Origin: Dictyostelium discoideum
Lineage: Eukaryota
Reading direction: 5' to 3'
Assembly (NCBI GenBank): GCA_000004695.1
Contig: CM000152.2
Span: 3,200,001 to 3,264,000, forward strand
DNA length: 64,000 bases
The number at the start of each line of letters is the position of its first letter. Position 1 is the first letter of the stretch. The notes under the pieces are model-generated. The model searched no databases and was not told where the DNA came from. It saw nothing but the letters and a program-made list of their open reading frames with translations. A program made the position numbers and the translations under genes. Below, one piece after another: positions 8,817 to 23,352 of the stretch.

Positions 8817-11777
8817 TTATTTATTTGATTTTGAAACTTTGGAATTGAAGCCAGCCATTTGTTGATATTTAGGTTTCTTTGGAACTTTTCTATCTCTATT
8901 TCTATTTTTAACATTTGCGGTTTCATAAAAGTGAACACCAACTTTTGAAGCATTGATTGCCTTTCTACGTTCTTTTTTACTTGGACCAGCTTCTGAATCT
9001 GATTCAACTTCTGGCATTTCATTATATTCTTTTCTTGTTTTTTTACCAGTTGGTTTTTGAGTTTCAGTTGTTGTTTTGTTTGTTGATTCTGAAACTTTAT
9101 TTTGAATTGATTCAAGCTTTTTAGTTAATGATGGTGCGGTTTTACTAATAACTGATTTCTTTTTAACAATTGGTTTTTCTTCTTGGATTGGTTCTTCATC
9201 TTGACCATCATCTTCTTGAGCGACATCTTTTTTGGTAACCTTCTTTTTAGCTGCAGCTGGTTGTTTCTTTGGTGGTTCTTCAACAACTGGTTCTACAACA
9301 GTGGCAGCTTTATTAGACTTTTTGGTTACTTTCTTTGGTGGCTCTTCAACAACTGGTTCAGTAATAACTGGTTGTGCAACAGCAGCGGAGGCTTTAGCAG
9401 ATTTCTTAACGACTTTCTTTGGTGGTTCTTCAACAACTGGTTCAGCAACAGCAGCAGTGACTTTGGTTGCAGATTTTTTAACGACTTTCTTTGGTGGCTC
9501 TTCAACAACTGGTTCAGCAACAGTGACTTTGGTTGCAGATTTTTTAACGACTTTCTTTGGTGGTTCTTCAACAACTGGTTCAGCAACAGTGGCGGCAGCT
9601 TTTGTTGATTTCTTAGCAGCAACTTTCTTTGGTGGTTCTTCAACAACTGGTTCAGTTGCAACAACTTTTTTATTTGATTTAACAGCAGCAACAGTTGGTT
9701 TTTCAACAATTGTTGGTTTAGTATCTTTGGAAACTGCTTTTTTATTGGTGGTGGTGGTAGTTGGAGTTACTACTTTTTCAACTTTTTCTTTTTTAACAGC
9801 AACTTGTTTAGTTGTTACTGGTGATTCAACATTTTTTACAGATTTTTTATTATTAATTGGTTCTTGTTTAACTTTAATATTTGATGATTTCTTTACATTT
9901 TTACCATTTGATTTAATTTGATCAACCTTTTCTTCTTCATCATAATCCAAATCACCATCTGCTAAATCATCATAATTTTCTTCACCATATAAAATATCCT
10001 CATCATCTAATTCCTCTTCTTCACCTGATAATTCTTCATCATCTTCATCGTCGTCATCTTCATTATTATCTTCTTCTTTTTGATATAAATCATCCCAATC
10101 TGGTTCTTCGTCAAATGGATCAACATATTCTTCACCATGAGCATCCTCTTCAGTGAATTCAGATTTAACTGGAATATTATTTAATTTTTGATTAACAACT
10201 AAATCACCATAAAGTTTTCTTCTTTCTTTTAATAATTTGTCAGTATCTTGATCAACTTCAGCTTCGTCAAGATATTGTTGTGGTTGAGTAGTGGTTGTAT
10301 TATCATTATCATTATTATCAGTTGATTCTAATTTAATTTTATTTAATTCATCTTCTTTTTCTTGTTCTGGAGTTAAATGTGGTGGTGCTTTAAAGTAAGG
10401 AATTTTACCTTTTTGATAATCATAAAGAACAAGTTTAGCACAAGCATTCATATTTGGTTGTCTTTTCTTTAAGAGTTTACCAGTTCTTTCGGCCATTTGA
10501 GTGAGGAAATCTTCATGATCTTTCCATTCGGCAATGTTATAAGTTTTAACGATATATTCTTTTTTAATACGATTTAAAACCTCTGGAATGAAAATGGTAG
10601 CATCTTCTAAATTTTCAACACGAACAACACCTTTTAATACGAGTTCAGCTTCTGAATCACCAGTGGCAGGAACGACACCTGGACAATCGATTAAATAGAT
10701 ACGTTTCATGAGGGTAATATATTGCCAAACTTTAGTTTCACCAGGAATTGGAGCAGCTTTACAAACTACTTTACTCTTGAGTGTATTGATGATTGAAGAT
10801 TTACCAACATTTGGATAACCAATGAAACCAACAGAGATTTGTTTCTTATCGGAATGTAATTTTGAGAATTGACGAAGTAATTGAATTAATGAACCTTTAC
10901 CGAATGGATTAGTGATTGAAGCGTGGAATGCCAATGTTGGATATTCCTTTGAGAGGATCTTAACCCAACGTGCGGTTGCCCAAGTTGGTACGAGATCACA
11001 TTTATTGAGAATGAAAATCAAATGTTTATGTTTTGAAGTCTTTTTCAATTGTTGTTCGACATGACGAGAACGAGTACCCATTGGATCACGAGCATCCAAA
11101 ACTTGTACCAATACATCGGAGGAATCGATAACTTTGTATAATTCACCCCAAATTCTCTTTGATGTACCTTTATCGAAAATATCCTTACGACGAGTTTCAA
11201 TTTCATCTTCATCAGGTTTAATATTTTTATCTTTAGTTTCATCGTATCCACTGGTGATTTCAGCTGCTTTGTTAATCATATTCTCATAATCGGTAACTGC
11301 TTTTAAATTTGGACGTTTACGTTGTTTCTTTGGTCCGAATGTGGTTTGAAATGATTCGGTGGTTAAAAGATTCATTTGAGTTTTCTTGGTACTGTCTTTC
11401 AATAAACCCAATGGTAACTTTGATGCATGTAACAATACCTTGTATGGATTGTTAACTTGTGATTCCATTTCTTCTCTAAATGTATTCAATTGATCTTGTC
11501 CAATAGCACGTGTATTACCAAACCATCTACGATCTGGTCTGATTCTAGTATCATGTGATGTATCCTTTGACATGAATGCACCACTAATTAATTTACCATC
11601 TCTTGTTCTAGTTGGTCTTTCACTATACATAGCCAACCTCTTAATGGTGGCACGATCTCTAAGGTTGGTTTTTGTCTTTGATACAATTCTATCTGGATTA
11701 TTTTGATTATTAGATTTATTAATTCTATTAGTAAAACTATTTGATTGATGGGTTCTTGGACCTCCTGGTTTAACCAT
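8817..11777 (-). CDS. Nucleolar GTP-binding protein 2 (Nog2/GNL2/nucleostemin family), a circularly permuted GTPase with a long C-terminal repeat extension
   Basis: Single 986-aa ORF. Motif order G4-G1-G3 (NKCDL...GYPNVGKSS...DCPG). Strong similarity to Nog2 core blocks ([48 protein letters not shown]). Confidence 0.9.
9250..9720 (-). repeat. Coding tandem repeat in the Nog2 C-terminal tail: about 8 copies of a 60–63-nt unit encoding [21 protein letters not shown]
   Basis: Repeated peptide is visible in ORF 8817..11777. The antisense ORFs 9183..9921 mirror the periodicity. Confidence 0.85.
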
Positions 11778-12416: not shown

Positions 12417-13908
12417 ATGATTTTTAGAGGTTTAAAATCTTTAAAAAATGGTTTCAATACAAATAATATTTTAATTTCAACTAATCAATCATTTAAAAGA
12501 TTTAATATTACTCCAATAACAACATCATCATTATTTAGAAACTTTACAACCAATATCGAACCAAAAATCGAATCTTCAACCGTTAATACTACCACTACAA
12601 ACATACCATTAAGTCAATCACAAACTGAAAACATACCAATTACACCAAAAAAAACATTTCAACCAGTAAAATTAGATGGTAAATTATTAGCTTCTCATAT
12701 TGTAAGTAGTGTTTGATATATTATTTCTTTATTTTTTATTTTATTTTATTTTATTAACAATAAATAAATTTATAATATAATTTTATATATAAATATATAA
12801 AATAGAAAAAATCAATTAAAGCAGATACAGAAGATTTTATTAAAAACTCTGGTGTAACACCAAATTTAGTTGTAATTTATGTAGGAGATAGTAAACAAAT
12901 TGAATCTTATATTAAAGCAAAGAGAACGGGATGTGAAGATGTTGGATTTAAATTTACATTGGATAGATTTTCATCAGATATTAAAGAGGACCAATTAATA
13001 AAAAAGATTAAATATCATTCTGAAGATCCTTCAGTTCATGGTATAATCGTTCAATTACCATTACCTGATAATTTGAACAAAGATGCAATCATTCAATCAA
13101 TTGATCCAAAAAAAGATGTTGATGGTTTAACTTCAACAAATTTAGGTCAAATTATGATTTCTAAAAAGTAAGTTTTTTATCTTTTTATTTTCATTTTTTA
13201 TATCATACTAATTATTTTTTTTAATGGTAAAAAAAAACAGACCATTATATATACCATGTACACCATTAGGTATTTTAGAAATTTTAAAAGCTTATAAAAT
13301 TAAAGTTGAAGGTAAAAATGTAGTTGTATTAGGACGCAGTAATTTAGTTGGTAGAACCATTGCAACTATTTTATCACAAAAGGATTTAACAAATCCATCA
13401 ATTATGAATGGTGCAAATGTTACCATAATTCATAAATATTCAAAAAATCATCTTGGATCAATTAGACAAGCTGATTTAATTATTGTAAGTTTTTTTTTTT
13501 TTTTTTTTTTTTAATAATTTTTTAAATTTGGTGTAGGACAAATAATAATAATAATAATTTTTTTTGGTTTTTTAAAAAAAAAAATAGTCTGCAACAGGTG
13601 TGCCAGGATTAATTAAAAAAGAAGATTTAAAGAGAGGAGTAATTTTAATTGATGTTGGTATTAGTTTTAAAGAAGATAGTACAAAGAAATCAGGATATAA
13701 AATGGTTGGTGATATAGATCCAGAGGCATACAGTAGATCGATTGCATACACACCTGTTCCAGGTGGTGTCGGTCCTTTAACTGTGGCTTGTCTTTTAAGA
13801 AATGTTTTAAGATCTGCAATTTTACAATATAGAATTCAAAGTGCAAGAGTTGGTTCTGCTTTAAATAATAAATTTACTGAAAAAAACAATAATAATAATA
13901 ATAATGTA

Positions 13909-14567: not shown

Positions 14568-15113
14568 ATGTCACGGTTAATAATTAATAAAAGTAATAGT
14601 AGAATTTGTAATACAATAGTTAAAAATTATTTAATTCAAACGAAATACACATTACAACAACAACAACACCAACAACAACAACAACAACAACAATATGTTA
14701 GAAGTTATTGTAGTTTACAACAACCAAAACCATCAAAACCAAATATGATAGAGATTGTTACTCATTTTTTTGATAAAGTTAAAAATAAATCATTTATAAT
14801 TGAAAACTATTTAAATAATCCGATTCCTGAACAACAACAACAATTAAATAAAAATATAAAAATCAATAATACAGATAAAGATAACGACACTTTAGAACAA
14901 ATCCAACTTTTAGATCCATTAAACAATTTAGGAAAAAGAAAAGGAAATGAAATTTTTAAAGTTGTTGAAAATGATTTATCAAACATGACACATAATATAA
15001 TGAAAACTATTACCGATGGTGTTAGTGCAAATAGTACTTATTCACCTTCACCTTCAAAAAAAACACATCCAATTTTATCTTCAATTTCAAGTTATTATTT
15101 TGAATTAAAAGTA

Positions 15114-15177
<64 letters not shown>

Positions 15178-16167
15178 CACTCTCCTCTCACACAATAATA
15201 GAATAAATAATAATTTTTAATTTTTTTTTTTTTTAAAAGGGTAAAAGAATAAGACCAACAATTGTATTGTTGTTATCAAAAGCGTTATCATCAACAGTAC
15301 ATGGATCACAATTAAAATTAGCGGAAATTGTTGAAATGATTCATACAGCAAGTTTAGTGCATGACGATGTTATTGATGAAGCATCAACTAGAAGAGATGT
15401 AATATCGATTAATCATAGTTATACAAATAAATTGGCAATTTTATGTGGTGATTATTTATTGGCAAGAGCATCAGTAGTTTTATCAACAATTAGAAATCCA
15501 GATGTAACTGAATGTATGTCAACTGCCTTGGCCGAGTTGGTTGAGGGTGAATTTATGCAAGCAAAATCAAATGGTGTCGTCTCTTTTGATAATTATTTAC
15601 AAAAAACTTATTTAAAAACTGGTTCTTTAATTACAAACAGTTGTAGATCTGCTGCTATCCTTTCTGGTGCAGATTCAAACATTATAAATATTTCAACTGA
15701 ATTTGGAAAGAATTTAGGTTTAGCTTTTCAAGTATGTAATTAATAATAATAATAATAATAATAGATAATAATAATAATAGTAGATAAAATTTTGTTTGTT
15801 TTATTAATAATAAAAAATATACAATAAATAGATTGTTGATGATTTATTAGATTATACAGGATCAGCTGAAGAATGTGGAAAAGCTACATCAGTTGATTTA
15901 ACTTTGGGATTAGCAACAGCACCAGTTTTATATGCAACCCAAGAATTCCCACAATTAGAGAAATTAATTAAAAGAAAGTTTTCAGAGATTGGTGATGTTG
16001 AAGAAGCAAAGAGGTTGGTTGCTTTAAGTAAAGGTATCGAGAAAACTAGAAATTTAGCTATCGAATATTGTAATCGTGCAATTCAATCCTTATTAAAATT
16101 ACCACAATCTGAATCAAGAGATCTTTTAATCACATTATCTCATATTGTTGTTACAAGAACAAAGTAA
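14568..16167 (+). CDS. coq1: trans-Polyprenyl (decaprenyl/solanesyl) diphosphate synthase, the Coq1 family of ubiquinone side-chain synthases
   Basis: Three exons: 14568..15110, 15240..15731, 15832..16167 (donors GTAAGT and GTATGT; phase 0 at both junctions). Motifs: GKRIRP, first Asp-rich motif LVHDDVID, second Asp-rich motif FQIVDDLLDY. The first intron holds a 60+ nt poly-T run. Confidence 0.85.
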
Positions 16168-16941: not shown

Positions 16942-17706
16942 ATGAAAAATAAATTAATTAATCTATTATTTTCATTAATTTTAATTTTTTTATCCATTAA
17001 TGCTTCCCAGAGTTTAGGTGCACATAAAACCACTGTCACACCGACCCCAACTCCAAATATTACAGTGACTCATACTTTAGCTCCTAATATTACAGTTACA
17101 CCAACCTCAACTCCAAATATTACAGTTACTCCTACCTCAACTCCAAATATTACAGTCACACCAACATCAACTCCAAACATTACAGTTACTCCAACATCAA
17201 CCCCTAATATTACAGTTACACCAACATCAACTCCAAATATTACAGTTACACCAACCTCAACTCCAAATATTACAGTTACACCAACCTCAACTCCTAATAT
17301 TACAGTTACACCAACCTCAACTCCAAATATTACAGTTACTCCAACCTCAACTCCAAATATTACAGTTACTCCTACCTCAACTCCAAATATTACAGTCACA
17401 CCAACCTCAACCCCTAATATTACAGTTACACCAACCTCAACTCCAAATATTACAGTTACACCAACTTCAACCCCTAATATTACAGTCACACCAACATCAA
17501 CTCCAAATATTACAGTTACACCAACATCAACTCCAAATATTACAGTTACTCCTACCTCAACTCCAAATATTACAGTCACACCAACATCAACTCCTAATAT
17601 TACAGTCACACCAACCTCAACTCCAAATATTACAGATACTCCAACCTCAACTCCTAATATTACAGATACTCCAACCTCAACTTCAAATATCACAATTTAT
17701 TTCTAA
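16942..17706 (+). CDS. Secreted mucin-like protein: signal peptide plus about 25 tandem copies of a 12-aa TPTSTPNITV(T) unit with N-glycosylation sequons
   Basis: Track ORF 16942..17706, hydrophobic N-terminus, near-perfect 36-nt repeat. Confidence 0.7.
   Translation: MKNKLINLLFSLILIFLSINASQSLGAHKTTVTPTPTPNITVTHTLAPNITVTPTSTPNITVTPTSTPNITVTPTSTPNITVTPTSTPNITVTPTSTPNITVTPTSTPNITVTPTSTPNITVTPTSTPNITVTPTSTPNITVTPTSTPNITVTPTSTPNITVTPTSTPNITVTPTSTPNITVTPTSTPNITVTPTSTPNITVTPTSTPNITVTPTSTPNITVTPTSTPNITDTPTSTPNITDTPTSTSNITIYF
17040..17690 (+). repeat. 36-nt coding minisatellite (Pro/Thr/Ser repeat)
   Basis: Direct tandem repeat seen in the sequence; antisense ORF 17070..17693 is its shadow. Confidence 0.9.
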
Positions 17707-18250
17707 TTGACTTTTTTTATTTAGGACTATTTTCATTACTCTAACATTACATCAAATTAATTTTTGTTATCTCATAAATGAAAAGATGTTTTTTCAATAT
17801 TAAAGGAAATGATAAATAAATATAACCAGGGTTTTCTTAAAATTTTTTTTCCAAATAAACTATTTTAATATTTATTTTAACTATTTTAAAAAACATTTTA
17901 TTTTCTTGAATGAGAATCTAGGATATTGGTATTAATAATATTAATAAAGAATTTATTATTGTACAACCATTTATAATATTATTTAATATTATTTAATTTT
18001 GTTTATTTATTTATTATTCTTAAAATATATTAAGACAATTAGCAATCGAGAGACTAATACAAGATGTTTTATTTAAATCTCAAAGAGGATTGATAGTTAT
18101 TATTTATTTTTATATGTATTGCATGAATTAATTAGGTTTCTTTGAACATTTTTAAAAACTTTTTATACTAAAATTTATAACTTCTTTGGTCTTAAAAATC
18201 TAAGAATATATTAAAACAGAATTGATATTAAAAAAATAAAAAAAAAGTTT

Positions 18251-19470
18251 TTTTGAATTGAGATTAAAAAAAGCAAGGGGCAGGTTAACTTTTCACCATG
18301 TAGTTAACCCTCGAAAGCTCAATTCAAAAAAAAAAAAAAAAAAATTATTGAAAATAAGAAAAAATCAATTAAGTTTTTTAACGGTTTTTTTTTAAAAAAC
18401 TAAAAATAAAAATAATAATTAGATTGTTTGGTAATTAAAATGAATATTTATTTGATTAAATTAATTAATTAATTTTTTTTTTATTAATTTTTTTCATTAT
18501 TTTTTCTTTGAAAAATCTGAAAAAAGTGGAAAAAATTGAAAAAGTTGAACTTGGAGCGTACTTTCTAAGGGTTTGGTGACCATTTAAATCTTCCAAAATA
18601 GTTTTACGAAATTCTCTATAGGATAGGCTATATTTGTTATAATTTTTGTGAACCACAAAGCTATTTACGATATAACATTCTATGATATACCAAAACAGTG
18701 TTAAATACCACTTTTTATTATGACCCGAATAAAATTCTTTTTTTATTCTTTGGTCTTGGCGGTCGCAGCACCCATGTTCATACGATAACTCACCAACACA
18801 ATAGAAAGTTTAATAGGTTCTGAATTCATTCTTTCCATTGAATTTGATTTATAATCCTCCTCTGTTGTTGGATCTTTAATTGTTTGAACCACCACATTCT
18901 ATAATAATAGTAAAACATCCTATTTCATTAATTAAACTATCTTCTTCTTCTTGAATTGAATGAGATAATAAATCAAAGTGACCTTCATCGTCTTCACCCT
19001 ATCAGAATTCATATTGTCAAAATTTGTTGAAATTTGTTGTTCAACTTTTTGTTTTTTTTTTTCCATTTCAAAATTTTTTTTATTAAATATATTGTTATTG
19101 AGGTGGAGGATAAGATATTACATTAAACTATATTTTTTTTTCTATTTTAATGAAATTAAAAATGAAAATAGCGCAACAGTACCACCACGCACACTGAATT
19201 TTTTACAATCATTCCAAAATATCATTAAAATATATAATGTAAATTTTTAGTAGAATTAAATAATATTATCATTGCAATCCAACAAAATGATCAATCACTT
19301 AAAAAAAAGTTTTTACTTTTTTTTTTTAAACGCAAAAATAAAAAAAAAAATAATAAAAAAAAAAAAAAAAATTCTGCACACGTCCATATAATTTGTTTTT
19401 ATTTATTTTTATTTTTTAAAAAAAAAAAACCTTTTTATTGATTTTTTGAATTGAGCTTTTGAGGGTTAAT
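18251..19470. mobile_element. Candidate inverted-repeat-bounded element or relic, about 1.2 kb. 25-bp imperfect inverted repeats lie at 18303..18327 and 19446..19470; there is a nested hairpin at the left end and degenerate coding remnants inside
   Basis: Left end: TTGAATTGAG..GGTTAACT-11nt-AGTTAACC-CTCGAAAG-CTCAATTCAA. Right end: TTGAATTGAG-CTTTTGAG-GGTTAAT, the reverse complement of the left inner arm (23/25). The interior has ATG-less open frames of roughly 100 aa that are GC-richer than the flanks. Confidence 0.35.
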
Positions 19471-19539: not shown

Positions 19540-21021
19540 ATGAATTTTAAATCAGTTATTTTATTATTATCATTTTTGTATTTTATATCAATAGTTGGTT
19601 GTTTAAAAACTGAAGATATTAATTATTATCAAGATGGTGAAAAACTAGTGTTTCAAATAAATCCTAACTCTGGATTTAATGGTAACAATTTGGTAATTTC
19701 TGAATTTCCATCAATTGCATCAAAAGGAAATTTTAACCAATCAAAACAACTTTTAAATATGCCATTTTTTAATTTAGACAACGGTTCAGTTTCATACAAC
19801 TTAACACTCCTTAAATTGTAAGTTTTTTTTTTTTTTATTTTCAAAAATTATCAGAATATTTTTTATTTTTCGTTTTTCGTTTTTCGTTTTTTCTAAAATT
19901 AAAAAAAAAGATCACCAAATTCATTACCATATAAAGCATATTTATCACCTTTTATTGGTGATGGATATAATTATACACTCTATTTTAATTTATTTGAAAA
20001 AACAAATTATTGTTCAAAAGCAAATTTCAAGAATTCAGAAGAATATACTTATCAATCATGTATTAATGGTGGAAAAAATAATGATTCTTTTTCTCAAGCT
20101 GGTGATCTATTTGAAGCATCATATGATATTTCCCAAGTTGATTTAGTTAGAATTAACTATAAAGCAACTCAATTTAACTATGGTTGTTCTAGAAATACTT
20201 GGTTTAATATTTATTGTGATAAAAATCAAGATTTCAAATTACTTGGTATGGGTGCTAATTATTGTAATTACGAGGTTAATATTTTATCATCTCATGCTTG
20301 TCCAGTGTACTCATCTATTCCTTATAACAAAATTGGTGATAGTACCTATGAACTTAATGTTGGTCCACTCTATAATCATACTGCTCTATTTTACTATATC
20401 AATGGTTCTATGATTAAATTCGATCTTAACTCCACTTCCCAATACACACCATCTCCAACACCATCTGAGACACCATCTCTAACACCATCTGAGACACCAT
20501 CTCCAACACCATCTGAGACTCCATCCGAGACACCATCTGAGACACCATCTCCAACACCATCCGAGACACCATCTCCAACACCATCTGAGACTCCATCTCT
20601 TACACCATCTGAGACACCATCTCCAACACCATCTGAGACTCCATCTCTTACACCATCTGAGACTCCATCTCTTACACCATCTGAGACACCAACTCCAACA
20701 CCATCCGAGACACCATCTCCAACACCATCCGAGACACCATCTCTAACACCATCTGAGACTCCATCTCTTACACCAACCTCAACACCAGTACCAAGTCCAA
20801 AGGTTTATTGTAGATCCAATCGTTTTGGAATTACAATTAATAGTACTGAAACAGTTTCATGTAGAGGATTTGGAAAAACAAAATGTATAACTAAATTGGG
20901 AAGTGAGTGTAGCACTGATAATCTAGATGGAGAAATAGTTTGTACTTCTAAATCATTACAATGTTTTGGTACCAACATTCAATGCATTTCAGGTGATGTT
21001 TATTGCTCAATTGATTTCTAA
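19540..21021 (+). CDS. Secreted mannose-6-phosphate-receptor-homology (MRH) domain protein with a Pro/Thr/Ser repeat stalk (TPSETPSP x about 13) and a Cys-rich C-terminus
   Basis: Two exons: 19540..19817 (donor GTAAGT, phase 2) and 19911..21021 (acceptor AAAAAAAG). MRH-like pattern: Y.YQSC..G...[11 protein letters not shown]...[15 protein letters not shown]......ANYCNYE...HACP. Confidence 0.7.
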
Positions 21022-22078: not shown

Positions 22079-23352
22079 TTATTTATATCTACATCGGTGA
22101 ATGGCACAATTTCCATTAATTTTTTTTATTTCTCTGAGTTCAAATTCTGTAAATAAAAAATTTTCATTCACCACATCTTGTAACAAAGGTTGAGAATTTA
22201 AAAGATAATGGTTATCAATATTAATATAATTAATATCTACGACAATTATTAAATAAAAAGGGATATTCCAATTTTCATCATTATTGAAACGACCAATACA
22301 AATAACAAAAGAGTTTGATTTATAAAGAGGAAACGATTTGAAAGTATGTAGGTATGGTTCAGTGAAAAGCTCTGGAACTGAAACAGACATTGGAATAAAA
22401 TTCAAAGTGGAAGGTAGTAGTTTTAGTTTATTGATGATTGGTGAAAAGATAATCGGAGTCCCAACTTCACTTGATAATTCTCAATCAATGATAAAAGACA
22501 AAGGCATTGTTTCTTTACCACGGCACTTATCTAATGGTTTTGATTGGTTTGAAAAAATTTGTGGACTTGTTGGTGGAACCCCAACAATTCCACAAATTTT
22601 TTCATATTCCTCTTGTTTAAAATTGGGAATCACAAAGTTTTTGAGATTAGCATGCGCACATAATGGACATACTACCATTAAATAAGATCGGACATCAGTA
22701 TACATATTCGGATAGGCGAGTTTATTCTCTTTAAGTATATTTAAAATTTTATATGGCAGAGAGTGATCCAACGTATGGAGGAAATAAACATGACCCCAAA
22801 ATTCTGAATATGATACATATATTGAAAGTTTTTGTCTTTTTTCTTTATTTGCGCCCTTCAAACACAAATTTTCACCTTCTAAACATGTGATATTATAACC
22901 ATTTTTATCTTGAAATGTTTTGAGGGAAATATTATTTTCTTCAATTTTCTCTCTAATACCTAATCGGGTTTTTACACTTCTATCTCTTAAATAAATAACC
23001 ATTTTATTAATTATATCTATTGTAAGACATACTATTTGGGACATTTTTATTTGATGATTAAAAAAAAATAAAAGTTGAAGAAAATTTAAACACAAAAAAA
23101 TTTTCTCACAAAAAGTCGTTTGGTTTTTTTTTTATTTTTTTTTTTTATTTTTTTTTATATTTTTTTAAAAGTTTAATTTTTTTTTAATTTTTTTTTTTTT
23201 TATTTATTTGAAAATTTTTTGATATTTTTTGTTCTAATCAAAATATCTAAGTTTGAATTTGATTTTCTTACCTTCATTAAAAGTGTGGCTTCTTTAAAAG
23301 GACATTTAATCTCGATCATAGCATCATTTTCATACTCTGTTCCATATGCCAT
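22079..23352 (-). CDS. Hypothetical protein of about 370 aa, interrupted by a single in-frame TGA at 22481..22483. Possible pseudogene, sequencing error or readthrough
   Basis: Exon 1 is 23352..23272 (MAYGTEYENDAMIEIKCPFKEATLLMK, donor GTAAGA). Exon 2 starts at 23104 (acceptor TTTTGTGAG, phase 0) and contains track ORFs 22481..23095 and 22079..22405. Those two ORFs are in the same frame, separated only by the TGA. Confidence 0.4.

Follow-up and report, generated by a model that had tools for sequence, protein, structure and literature searches.

A decayed, internally deleted copy of a probable piggyBac-superfamily transposon at a TTAA site in Dictyostelium discoideum

The window (the whole 64-kb stretch of Dictyostelium discoideum DNA that was analyzed) has a GC content of about 23% and carries, between two genes for repeat-rich proteins, an intergenic segment bounded by inverted repeats. 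The 5′ neighbor of this segment is a gene for a 254-aa repeat protein (16942–17706), and the 3′ neighbor gene has its ATG at 19540, 70 bp from the TTAA at the right end of the segment. Further upstream, a polyprenyl synthase gene at 14568–16167 was used as a synteny anchor. The region from 6875 to 27719 is 99.7–99.8% identical to chromosome CM142509.1 of assembly GCA_054883475.1 (locus L003). An exact-match look-up of the neighboring proteins (254 aa, 187 aa, and 986 aa) returned only near-identical sequences from GCA_054883475.1 and 1-kb Logan contigs, and Rfam and tRNA scans of the segment gave no match above threshold. The GC content is 30.2% in 18660–18990 and 30% in 18501–19010, compared with 12–18% in the non-coding ends of the segment and its flanks, in agreement with an earlier description of this DNA, made from the letters alone (hereafter the sequence-only reading), of an interior that is GC-richer than its surroundings.

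The same description had placed 25-bp inverted repeats at 18303–18327 and 19446–19470. These repeats were complementary at 23 of 25 positions, and the boundaries of the segment had been correctly delimited. When up to three mismatches were allowed, the motif TTAACCCTCGAAAGCTCAATTCAA occurred at two sites only in the 64 kb, both of them ends of the element (0 expected from 100 shuffles). The exact terminal inverted repeat (TIR) is 24 bp long, CCCTCrAAAGCTCAATTCAAAAAA, with one G/A mismatch between the arms. The left TIR, CCCTCGAAAGCTCAATTCAAAAAA (18308–18331, plus strand), forms the end 3′ of the transposase gene and is kept in the copies at loci L001 and L003, and the right TIR (19442–19465, minus strand; reverse complement CCCTCAAAAGCTCAATTCAAAAAA) is kept in those at L002 and L009.

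A target-site duplication had been described as not evident, and this proved wrong: TTAA lies directly outside the left TIR at 18304–18307, where the homology between copies ends, and directly outside the right TIR at 19466–19469. The whole element, with both TTAAs, spans 18304–19469 (1166 bp, or 1.17 kb); the left flank ends in CACCATGTAG before the first TTAA, and the right flank starts with TTGCCCTAAT after the second. Since TTAA occurs at 1.6% of window positions, the chance of finding it at both flanks is about 3e-4, and it is also present at the preserved ends of copies L002, L009, and L001. Because the tetranucleotide is palindromic and the comparison covers filled sites alone, TTAA might, strictly speaking, represent the terminal 4 bp of the repeat itself. 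Over its first 13 nt, the TIR is identical at 10 positions to the terminal repeat of Trichoplusia ni piggyBac, CCCTAGAAAGATA. A TTAA duplication and C[C/A/T][C/A/T] termini are traits of the piggyBac superfamily (PMC5381638), and the TTAA and CCCT termini observed here are typical of piggyBac. Scans of JGI metagenome contigs and IMG/VR viral contigs with the TIR gave 0 matches.

Read from the outside inwards, both ends remain alike past the 24-bp TIR (AAAAAATCAATWAAG...T-run...AAAAAAYTAAAAATAAA), in asymmetric positions. The left sub-terminal repeat, AAAAAATCAATTAAG...TTTTTTTTTAAAAAACTAAAAATAAA (18359–18410, plus strand), is separated from the left TIR by an A-rich spacer of ~27 nt, and the right one (19402–19441, minus strand; 19402–19447 in the alignment) adjoins the right TIR with no spacer (0 nt). 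The local alignment of the two scored 44 against 28.6 ± 4.2 in shuffles, with 4 of 1000 shuffles scoring as high, in sequence that is AT-rich and of low complexity. Canonical piggyBac has asymmetric sub-terminal repeats (PMC5381638); given the low complexity of the sequence, the asymmetry found here is suggestive only.

The foldback noted earlier at the left end is indeed present, at 18249–18331 (83 nt). Folded as single-stranded DNA, this stretch has a dG of −16.1 kcal/mol (z = −4.8), and 0 of 200 shuffles folded as well. The outer stem is formed by pairing of the left TIR with a third copy, standing alone, of the TIR's inner 14 nt, TTTTTTGAATTGAG (18249–18262, plus strand), which faces the left TIR from the left flank, outside the element proper. 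This 14-mer occurs exactly three times in the window (at 18249, at 18318 on the minus strand, and at 19442), and a further TTAA lies between the flank copy and the left TIR, at 18285–18288. Since copy L001 lacks this flanking sequence at its left end, the flank 14-mer is not part of the element. A search for an older adjacent copy to the left of the 14-mer aligned 18 nt (17/18), a score reached by 18 of 500 shuffles, with no homology further left. We tentatively suggest that the flank 14-mer most likely remains from an earlier insertion beside the element, or results from an aberrant event.

In the interior, the previously noted open frames on the minus strand are present at 18468–18809, 18746–18898, 18879–18998, and 18935–19066. 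The coding sequence consists of two remnants of a transposase gene. The C-terminal remnant (18465–18894, minus strand) corresponds to residues ~423–556 of the parent protein described below, ends in a TAA stop at 18465–18467, and keeps the MGAC-D-RQ-D-Q motif with the third and fourth catalytic Asp; it is damaged by a 1-nt deletion near 18767 and by in-frame stops upstream. After frameshift correction, the minus-strand remnant matched Pfam PF13843 (DDE_Tnp_1_7) with 26.2–26.4 bits over profile positions 288–349 of 349, above the Pfam gathering cut-off of 22.4 bits, and the natural, uncorrected frame of copy L001 reached 19.2 bits (E = 8e-4). Moreover, the remnant matched the solved piggyBat transposase 9c0f (E = 1.2e-6, residues 387–472) and aligned to T. 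ni piggyBac 6x67 over the GGVD motif, which holds the third catalytic Asp. Comparison of three copies gave the ancestral motif YRMNMGACDRQDQ, the piggyBat equivalent of which is YNKHMKGVDRADQ.

The N-terminal remnant (18895–19066, minus strand) starts with an ATG at 19064–19066 and covers residues 1 to ~56, an acidic N-terminus interrupted by a frameshift and a stop. A tblastn search with the parent protein recovered residues 1–22 and 25–49 of this remnant at 88–91% identity, and residues 461–548 of the C-terminal remnant at 95% identity. Upstream of the transposase ATG, comparison of the copies delimited a region at 19067–19401 (minus strand) that presumably comprised the promoter and 5′ UTR; within it, a segment at ~19130–19327 is present in the window and L009 copies and deleted in L002. 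With the first two catalytic Asp missing and with stops and frameshifts in what remains, the window copy is unable to encode a transposase and is thus non-autonomous.

An exhaustive HMMER protein search with the exact window frame 18468–18809 (minus strand) as query found a 530-aa protein, P0021 (KAM9971246.1, [quoted passage not shown]), which is 90% identical to the remnant over its C-terminus. P0021 matched PF13843 with E = 8e-50 (~170 bits), the sole Pfam family matched at E ≤ 0.01, and also matched piggyBat 9c0f (E = 5e-22) and T. ni piggyBac 6x67 (E = 1e-12). Its catalytic Asp set is complete: VIDED, LFTDNYF, and GACDRQDQ align to D268, D346, and D447/D450, respectively. The protein sits in an element of ~2.26 kb at locus L009 (9565–11825) in a second D. 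discoideum strain (assembly GCA_054859355.1). One TIR of the L009 element is lost, and the other begins with ACC instead of CCC.

The annotated "intron" of P0021 is located at a T12 homopolymer, at L009 ~10435–10446, and has TG...GA boundaries instead of GT...AG. Removal of one T from this run yielded a continuous ORF of 556 aa, which matched PF13843 with 173.6 bits over profile positions 2–349. Since removal of the T restores the frame, the interruption in the L009 gene is either a genuine single frameshift or an assembly error in the homopolymer; in this one wild-type assembly, the transposase ORF is otherwise intact. No C-terminal cysteine-rich domain was detected in the parent transposase, in which there are no cysteines after the catalytic domain and no match to PF13842, and there is no space for a further exon between the end of the parent-type transposase and the TIR. 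This domain is found in "almost all" piggyBac-like transposases (PMC5381638), that is, not in every member, and it is therefore typical rather than defining. Beyond the D. discoideum complex, the protein search returned nothing closely related to P0021: the nearest protein there is 29% identical, and identity to any other known piggyBac protein is only about 25–29%.

Alignment with the L009 element revealed how the window copy is related to it. Positions 18323–18894 of the window correspond to L009 11825–11260 (94.6% identity) and positions 18895–19469 to L009 10180–9565 (89% identity). The window copy thus matches L009 on both sides of a stretch that it lacks, indicating that it is an internal-deletion derivative. 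The junction lies at 18894/18895, where ~1080 bp (L009 10181–11259) are gone; the deleted part corresponds approximately to transposase residues 57–422 and includes the first two catalytic Asp. At the parental breakpoints of this deletion, a 3-bp ATG microhomology is shared.

Copies were found at four unrelated loci in two assemblies, namely the window locus (equivalent to L003), L002 near G6PD, L001 near EFL1, and L009 near Tgr-like genes. At L002, the deletion junction is exactly that of the window copy (...TATAGAATG/TGGTGGTTCAAAC..., the slash marking the junction), and the right TIR and TTAA are intact. The identical junction at the window locus and at L002 indicates that the deletion derivative came to occupy at least two sites after its formation. 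Copy L001 has independent breakpoints, keeping residues 1–91 and 444–550. Over blastn-aligned blocks, pairwise identity of the copies is 87–96%. The damage differs from copy to copy: both termini and both TTAAs are kept in the window copy only, and none of the copies found has both good ends and a good ORF. In addition, a related fragment annotated in "D. cf. discoideum" is identical at about 80% of the ungapped aligned positions. The gene models on sister copies in other assemblies are labelled "hypothetical protein", and the model on L001 (P0001) has an intron.

With the polyprenyl synthase gene as anchor, orthologous loci were retrieved from D. citrinum, D. dimigraforme, and D. firmibasis. 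Neither the TIR, nor element DNA, nor piggyBac-like coding sequence was found at these syntenic loci. The homologous intergenic spacer measures 626 bp in D. citrinum versus 1833 bp in D. discoideum, and the D. citrinum flank homology restarts 10 bp past the right TTAA; the AT-rich spacer of this species is too diverged to align for a base-level call of an empty site, and D. firmibasis lacks the two flanking genes themselves. The sequence-only reading had named, as evidence that would speak against it, a repeat that is single-copy in the genome and the same structure with an intact gene in related species. Neither applies: the repeat is multi-copy, and the structure is absent from the relatives.

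Taken together, we conclude, with a probability of roughly 93%, that window positions 18304–19469 are a non-autonomous, internally deleted, and decayed copy of a D. discoideum piggyBac-superfamily transposon at a TTAA site. Sequence comparison demonstrates how the element is built, which family it belongs to, that it arose by deletion, that the family has spread to several loci, and that the element is missing from the sister species at the syntenic loci. The earlier proposal of a non-autonomous inverted-repeat element with pseudogenised coding sequence is upheld by this conclusion, and two parts of that proposal, the foldback class and the capture of gene fragments, are not.

The improbable alternative that the element is a small foldback or "thug-like" non-autonomous element with captured host-gene fragments would draw on the strong hairpin at the left end and on the combination of a short element, inverted ends, and no intact ORF; furthermore, thug-S has a short ORF with an intron (PMC4894637), as does the P0001 model on L001. 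However, the outer arm of the hairpin lies outside the element and is missing in L001, and the inverted arms measure 24 bp (about 50–80 bp if the interrupted sub-terminal similarity is included) out of 1166 bp, which does not fit foldback elements or MITEs, where a short non-coding element consists largely of long inverted arms. The interior is a transposase remnant, and the pieces once taken for captured gene fragments are what is left of the N- and C-terminal parts of the transposase belonging to the element itself; since every coding piece is colinear with the transposase of the family, nothing has been captured. A published miRNA assigned to thug-S was without match in any copy. Specifically, the 5p and 3p sequences of miRNA_can_D3, searched with up to three mismatches, were not found in the window, L001, L002, or L009 copies, a weak test that assumes "miRNA-like_D3" to be the miRNA_can_D3 of Table 2; the sole near match, at L009 17205, is in unrelated sequence ~5 kb from the element.

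We also considered a pseudogenised host gene, or a decayed domesticated piggyBac-derived gene, lying between chance inverted repeats. The decayed open frames with a coding-like GC content of 30% and the "hypothetical protein" models on sister copies in other assemblies would be compatible with such a gene. Yet the repeat together with TTAA greatly exceeds chance expectation, unrelated loci carry copies with these ends, and no such gene exists at the syntenic site in the three sister species, which makes this reading highly improbable. A further candidate is another cut-and-paste superfamily with 4-bp AT-rich duplications, such as Sola2: in D. fasciculatum and P. pallidum, Sola2 elements have TIRs of 12–21 bp and duplications of this kind (PMC3627910). 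This reading can be dismissed almost entirely, because PF13843 is the only Pfam family of the parent protein at E ≤ 0.01, its closest solved structures are piggyBat and piggyBac, and every informative end has TTAA as its duplication.

For the deletion derivative of a piggyBac-superfamily transposon, we propose the following origin. By analogy with canonical piggyBac, the parent transposase would bind both kinds of repeat at the ends, terminal and sub-terminal, excise the element at the adjoining TTAAs, and re-insert it at another TTAA. The ~1.08-kb deletion may have arisen by abortive gap repair or by microhomology-mediated deletion, and the resulting derivative would then have been mobilised in trans by a full-length copy. 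On the same analogy, the intact-looking termini suggest that the window copy could in principle still be mobilised where an active transposase exists.

A bolder proposition is that the family represents a very divergent piggyBac lineage without a cysteine-rich domain that is active now, or was active very recently, in natural populations. We consider this unlikely. If it were true, deletion derivatives with intact termini would still be mobilisable and polymorphic between strains, and Dictyostelium would possess an endogenous TTAA-specific cut-and-paste system lacking a DNA-binding domain thought to be essential in canonical piggyBac.

Among D. discoideum proteins, only one piggyBac family was found. 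The Repbase suffix _DD stands for Dictyostelium discoideum. An entry with this suffix, piggyBacA-1_DD, is named in a supplementary table of bioRxiv 10.64898/2026.03.01.708701, although the same preprint, despite its own table, calls piggyBac "not reported in D. discoideum". Given that one family was found, the window family is probably piggyBacA-1_DD, matched by name and species only, and would therefore already be known; the window copy would then be a deletion derivative and not the consensus. A literature search for "piggyBacA" returned unrelated plasmid names only. Reviews list only Tdd, DDT, and thug as Dictyostelium DNA transposons and state that their transposases resemble nothing known (PMC5633606). 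The transposon family is hardly mentioned in the accessible Dictyostelium literature.

The element itself is an ordinary genomic fossil of a textbook kind. Its family is mildly unusual in that the cysteine-rich domain is lacking, the transposase is strongly divergent, and one natural strain carries a transposase gene that is nearly intact. The assignment has value for annotation, as it explains an odd intergenic segment and shows that KAM9971246.1, P0001, and P0002, three models labelled "hypothetical protein" in recent assemblies of D. discoideum, are transposon ORFs or remnants of them. It also corrects the impression given by the reviews that the transposases of D. discoideum DNA transposons resemble nothing known. 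Because the right end of the element lies 70 bp upstream of a start codon, the insertion may have reshaped the putative promoter of that gene. Moreover, should the near-intact transposase of the natural isolate be active, the family could provide a native tool for insertional mutagenesis as well as a strain marker.

Comparison with known systems places the family close to piggyBac (IFP2) of Trichoplusia ni and piggyBat of Myotis lucifugus, with which it shares TTAA, CCCT termini, a PF13843 transposase, and, in the parent, equivalents of D268, D346, D447, and D450. As in these systems, internally deleted non-autonomous derivatives exist; an asymmetric spacing of the sub-terminal repeats, seen in low-complexity sequence, may be a further likeness. 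Unlike them, the Dictyostelium element has a TIR of 24 bp rather than 12–19 bp and a transposase without the cysteine-rich domain, its host is an amoebozoan with 22% GC, and the window copy is dead. Piggybac-like elements of Entamoeba invadens also have an amoebozoan host and belong to the same superfamily (PMC5381638), a likeness at the level of the superfamily only. Within D. discoideum, thug-S and thug-T (Gloeckner et al., 2001) are likewise small DNA elements with inverted ends, and thug elements make up 0.1% of the genome (PMC5633606). As far as these are known from descriptions, the D. discoideum transposases are said to resemble no known family, whereas the transposase of the window family is clearly that of a piggyBac element.

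Three gene models that recent D. discoideum assemblies annotate as 'hypothetical protein' are transposon ORFs, or remnants of such ORFs spliced together, drawn on copies of the same piggyBac family as the window element. These are KAM9971246.1 (P0021), the parent-type transposase at the full-length copy L009 (10001-11672; GCA_054859355.1), together with P0001 and P0002, called on the sister copies L001 (10001-10611) and L002 (10001-11334), respectively. The annotated 'intron' of P0021 has non-canonical TG..GA boundaries and only skirts a frameshift within a T12 homopolymer. In addition, a segment of about 200 bp lying 5' of the transposase ATG (window ~19130-19327) is present in the window and L009 copies and deleted in L002. 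This segment, which is relatively GC-rich near GCGCAACAGTACCACCACGCACACTG, may be part of the promoter or 5' UTR of the element; its sole Rfam match was MIR1514 at 23.5 bits, far under the gathering score of 90.

The insertion is flanked by two genes (window 16942-17706 and 20446-20775) whose signal-peptide-like products are composed of near-perfect tandem peptide repeats. One repeat type has the unit TPNITVTPTS, with a 30-bp period and about 20 copies, and the other is of the (S/L)ETPSPTP type, built from 12/24-bp repeats. The D. citrinum and D. dimigraforme genes called at these positions encode proteins of differing length (363 and 482/452 aa), and in D. firmibasis the interval from coq1 to the myosin gene contains neither of the two repeat-protein genes. 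Moreover, the downstream repeat-protein gene is separated from the myosin-I gene by two small single-exon genes of 103 and 187 aa, called in D. discoideum on the minus strand (window 22079-23095). Their products carry no Pfam domain, and at the syntenic loci of D. citrinum, D. dimigraforme and D. firmibasis no gene call corresponds to either of them.

A protein search with the polyprenyl synthase of the window returned orthologues in D. citrinum, D. dimigraforme, D. firmibasis and D. purpureum, with no D. discoideum entry among them; this absence is odd, because a 456-aa polyprenyl_synt gene is called at that position in the near-identical D. discoideum assembly GCA_054883475.1. In D. citrinum (L004), the spacer that is the orthologue of the intergenic insertion site holds two copies (13648-13669 and 13869-13890) of a short palindrome-containing motif, CTTGGCAAAYCAAGAAAAAAAG, with a T-run after each copy. 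The motif, found neither in the window nor in any other fetched locus, may represent a small repeat specific to this species.

Furthermore, a hairpin-forming stretch on the minus strand of L009 (17100-17330), which has no similarity to the piggyBac element, contains a near match, with 3 mismatches, to miRNA_can_D3-5p, a published miRNA of D. discoideum. According to the text of the miRNA paper, a 'miRNA-like_D3' lies in the small DNA transposon thug-S. The hairpin may indicate a diverged copy of thug-S at a distance of about 5 kb from the full-length piggyBac element.
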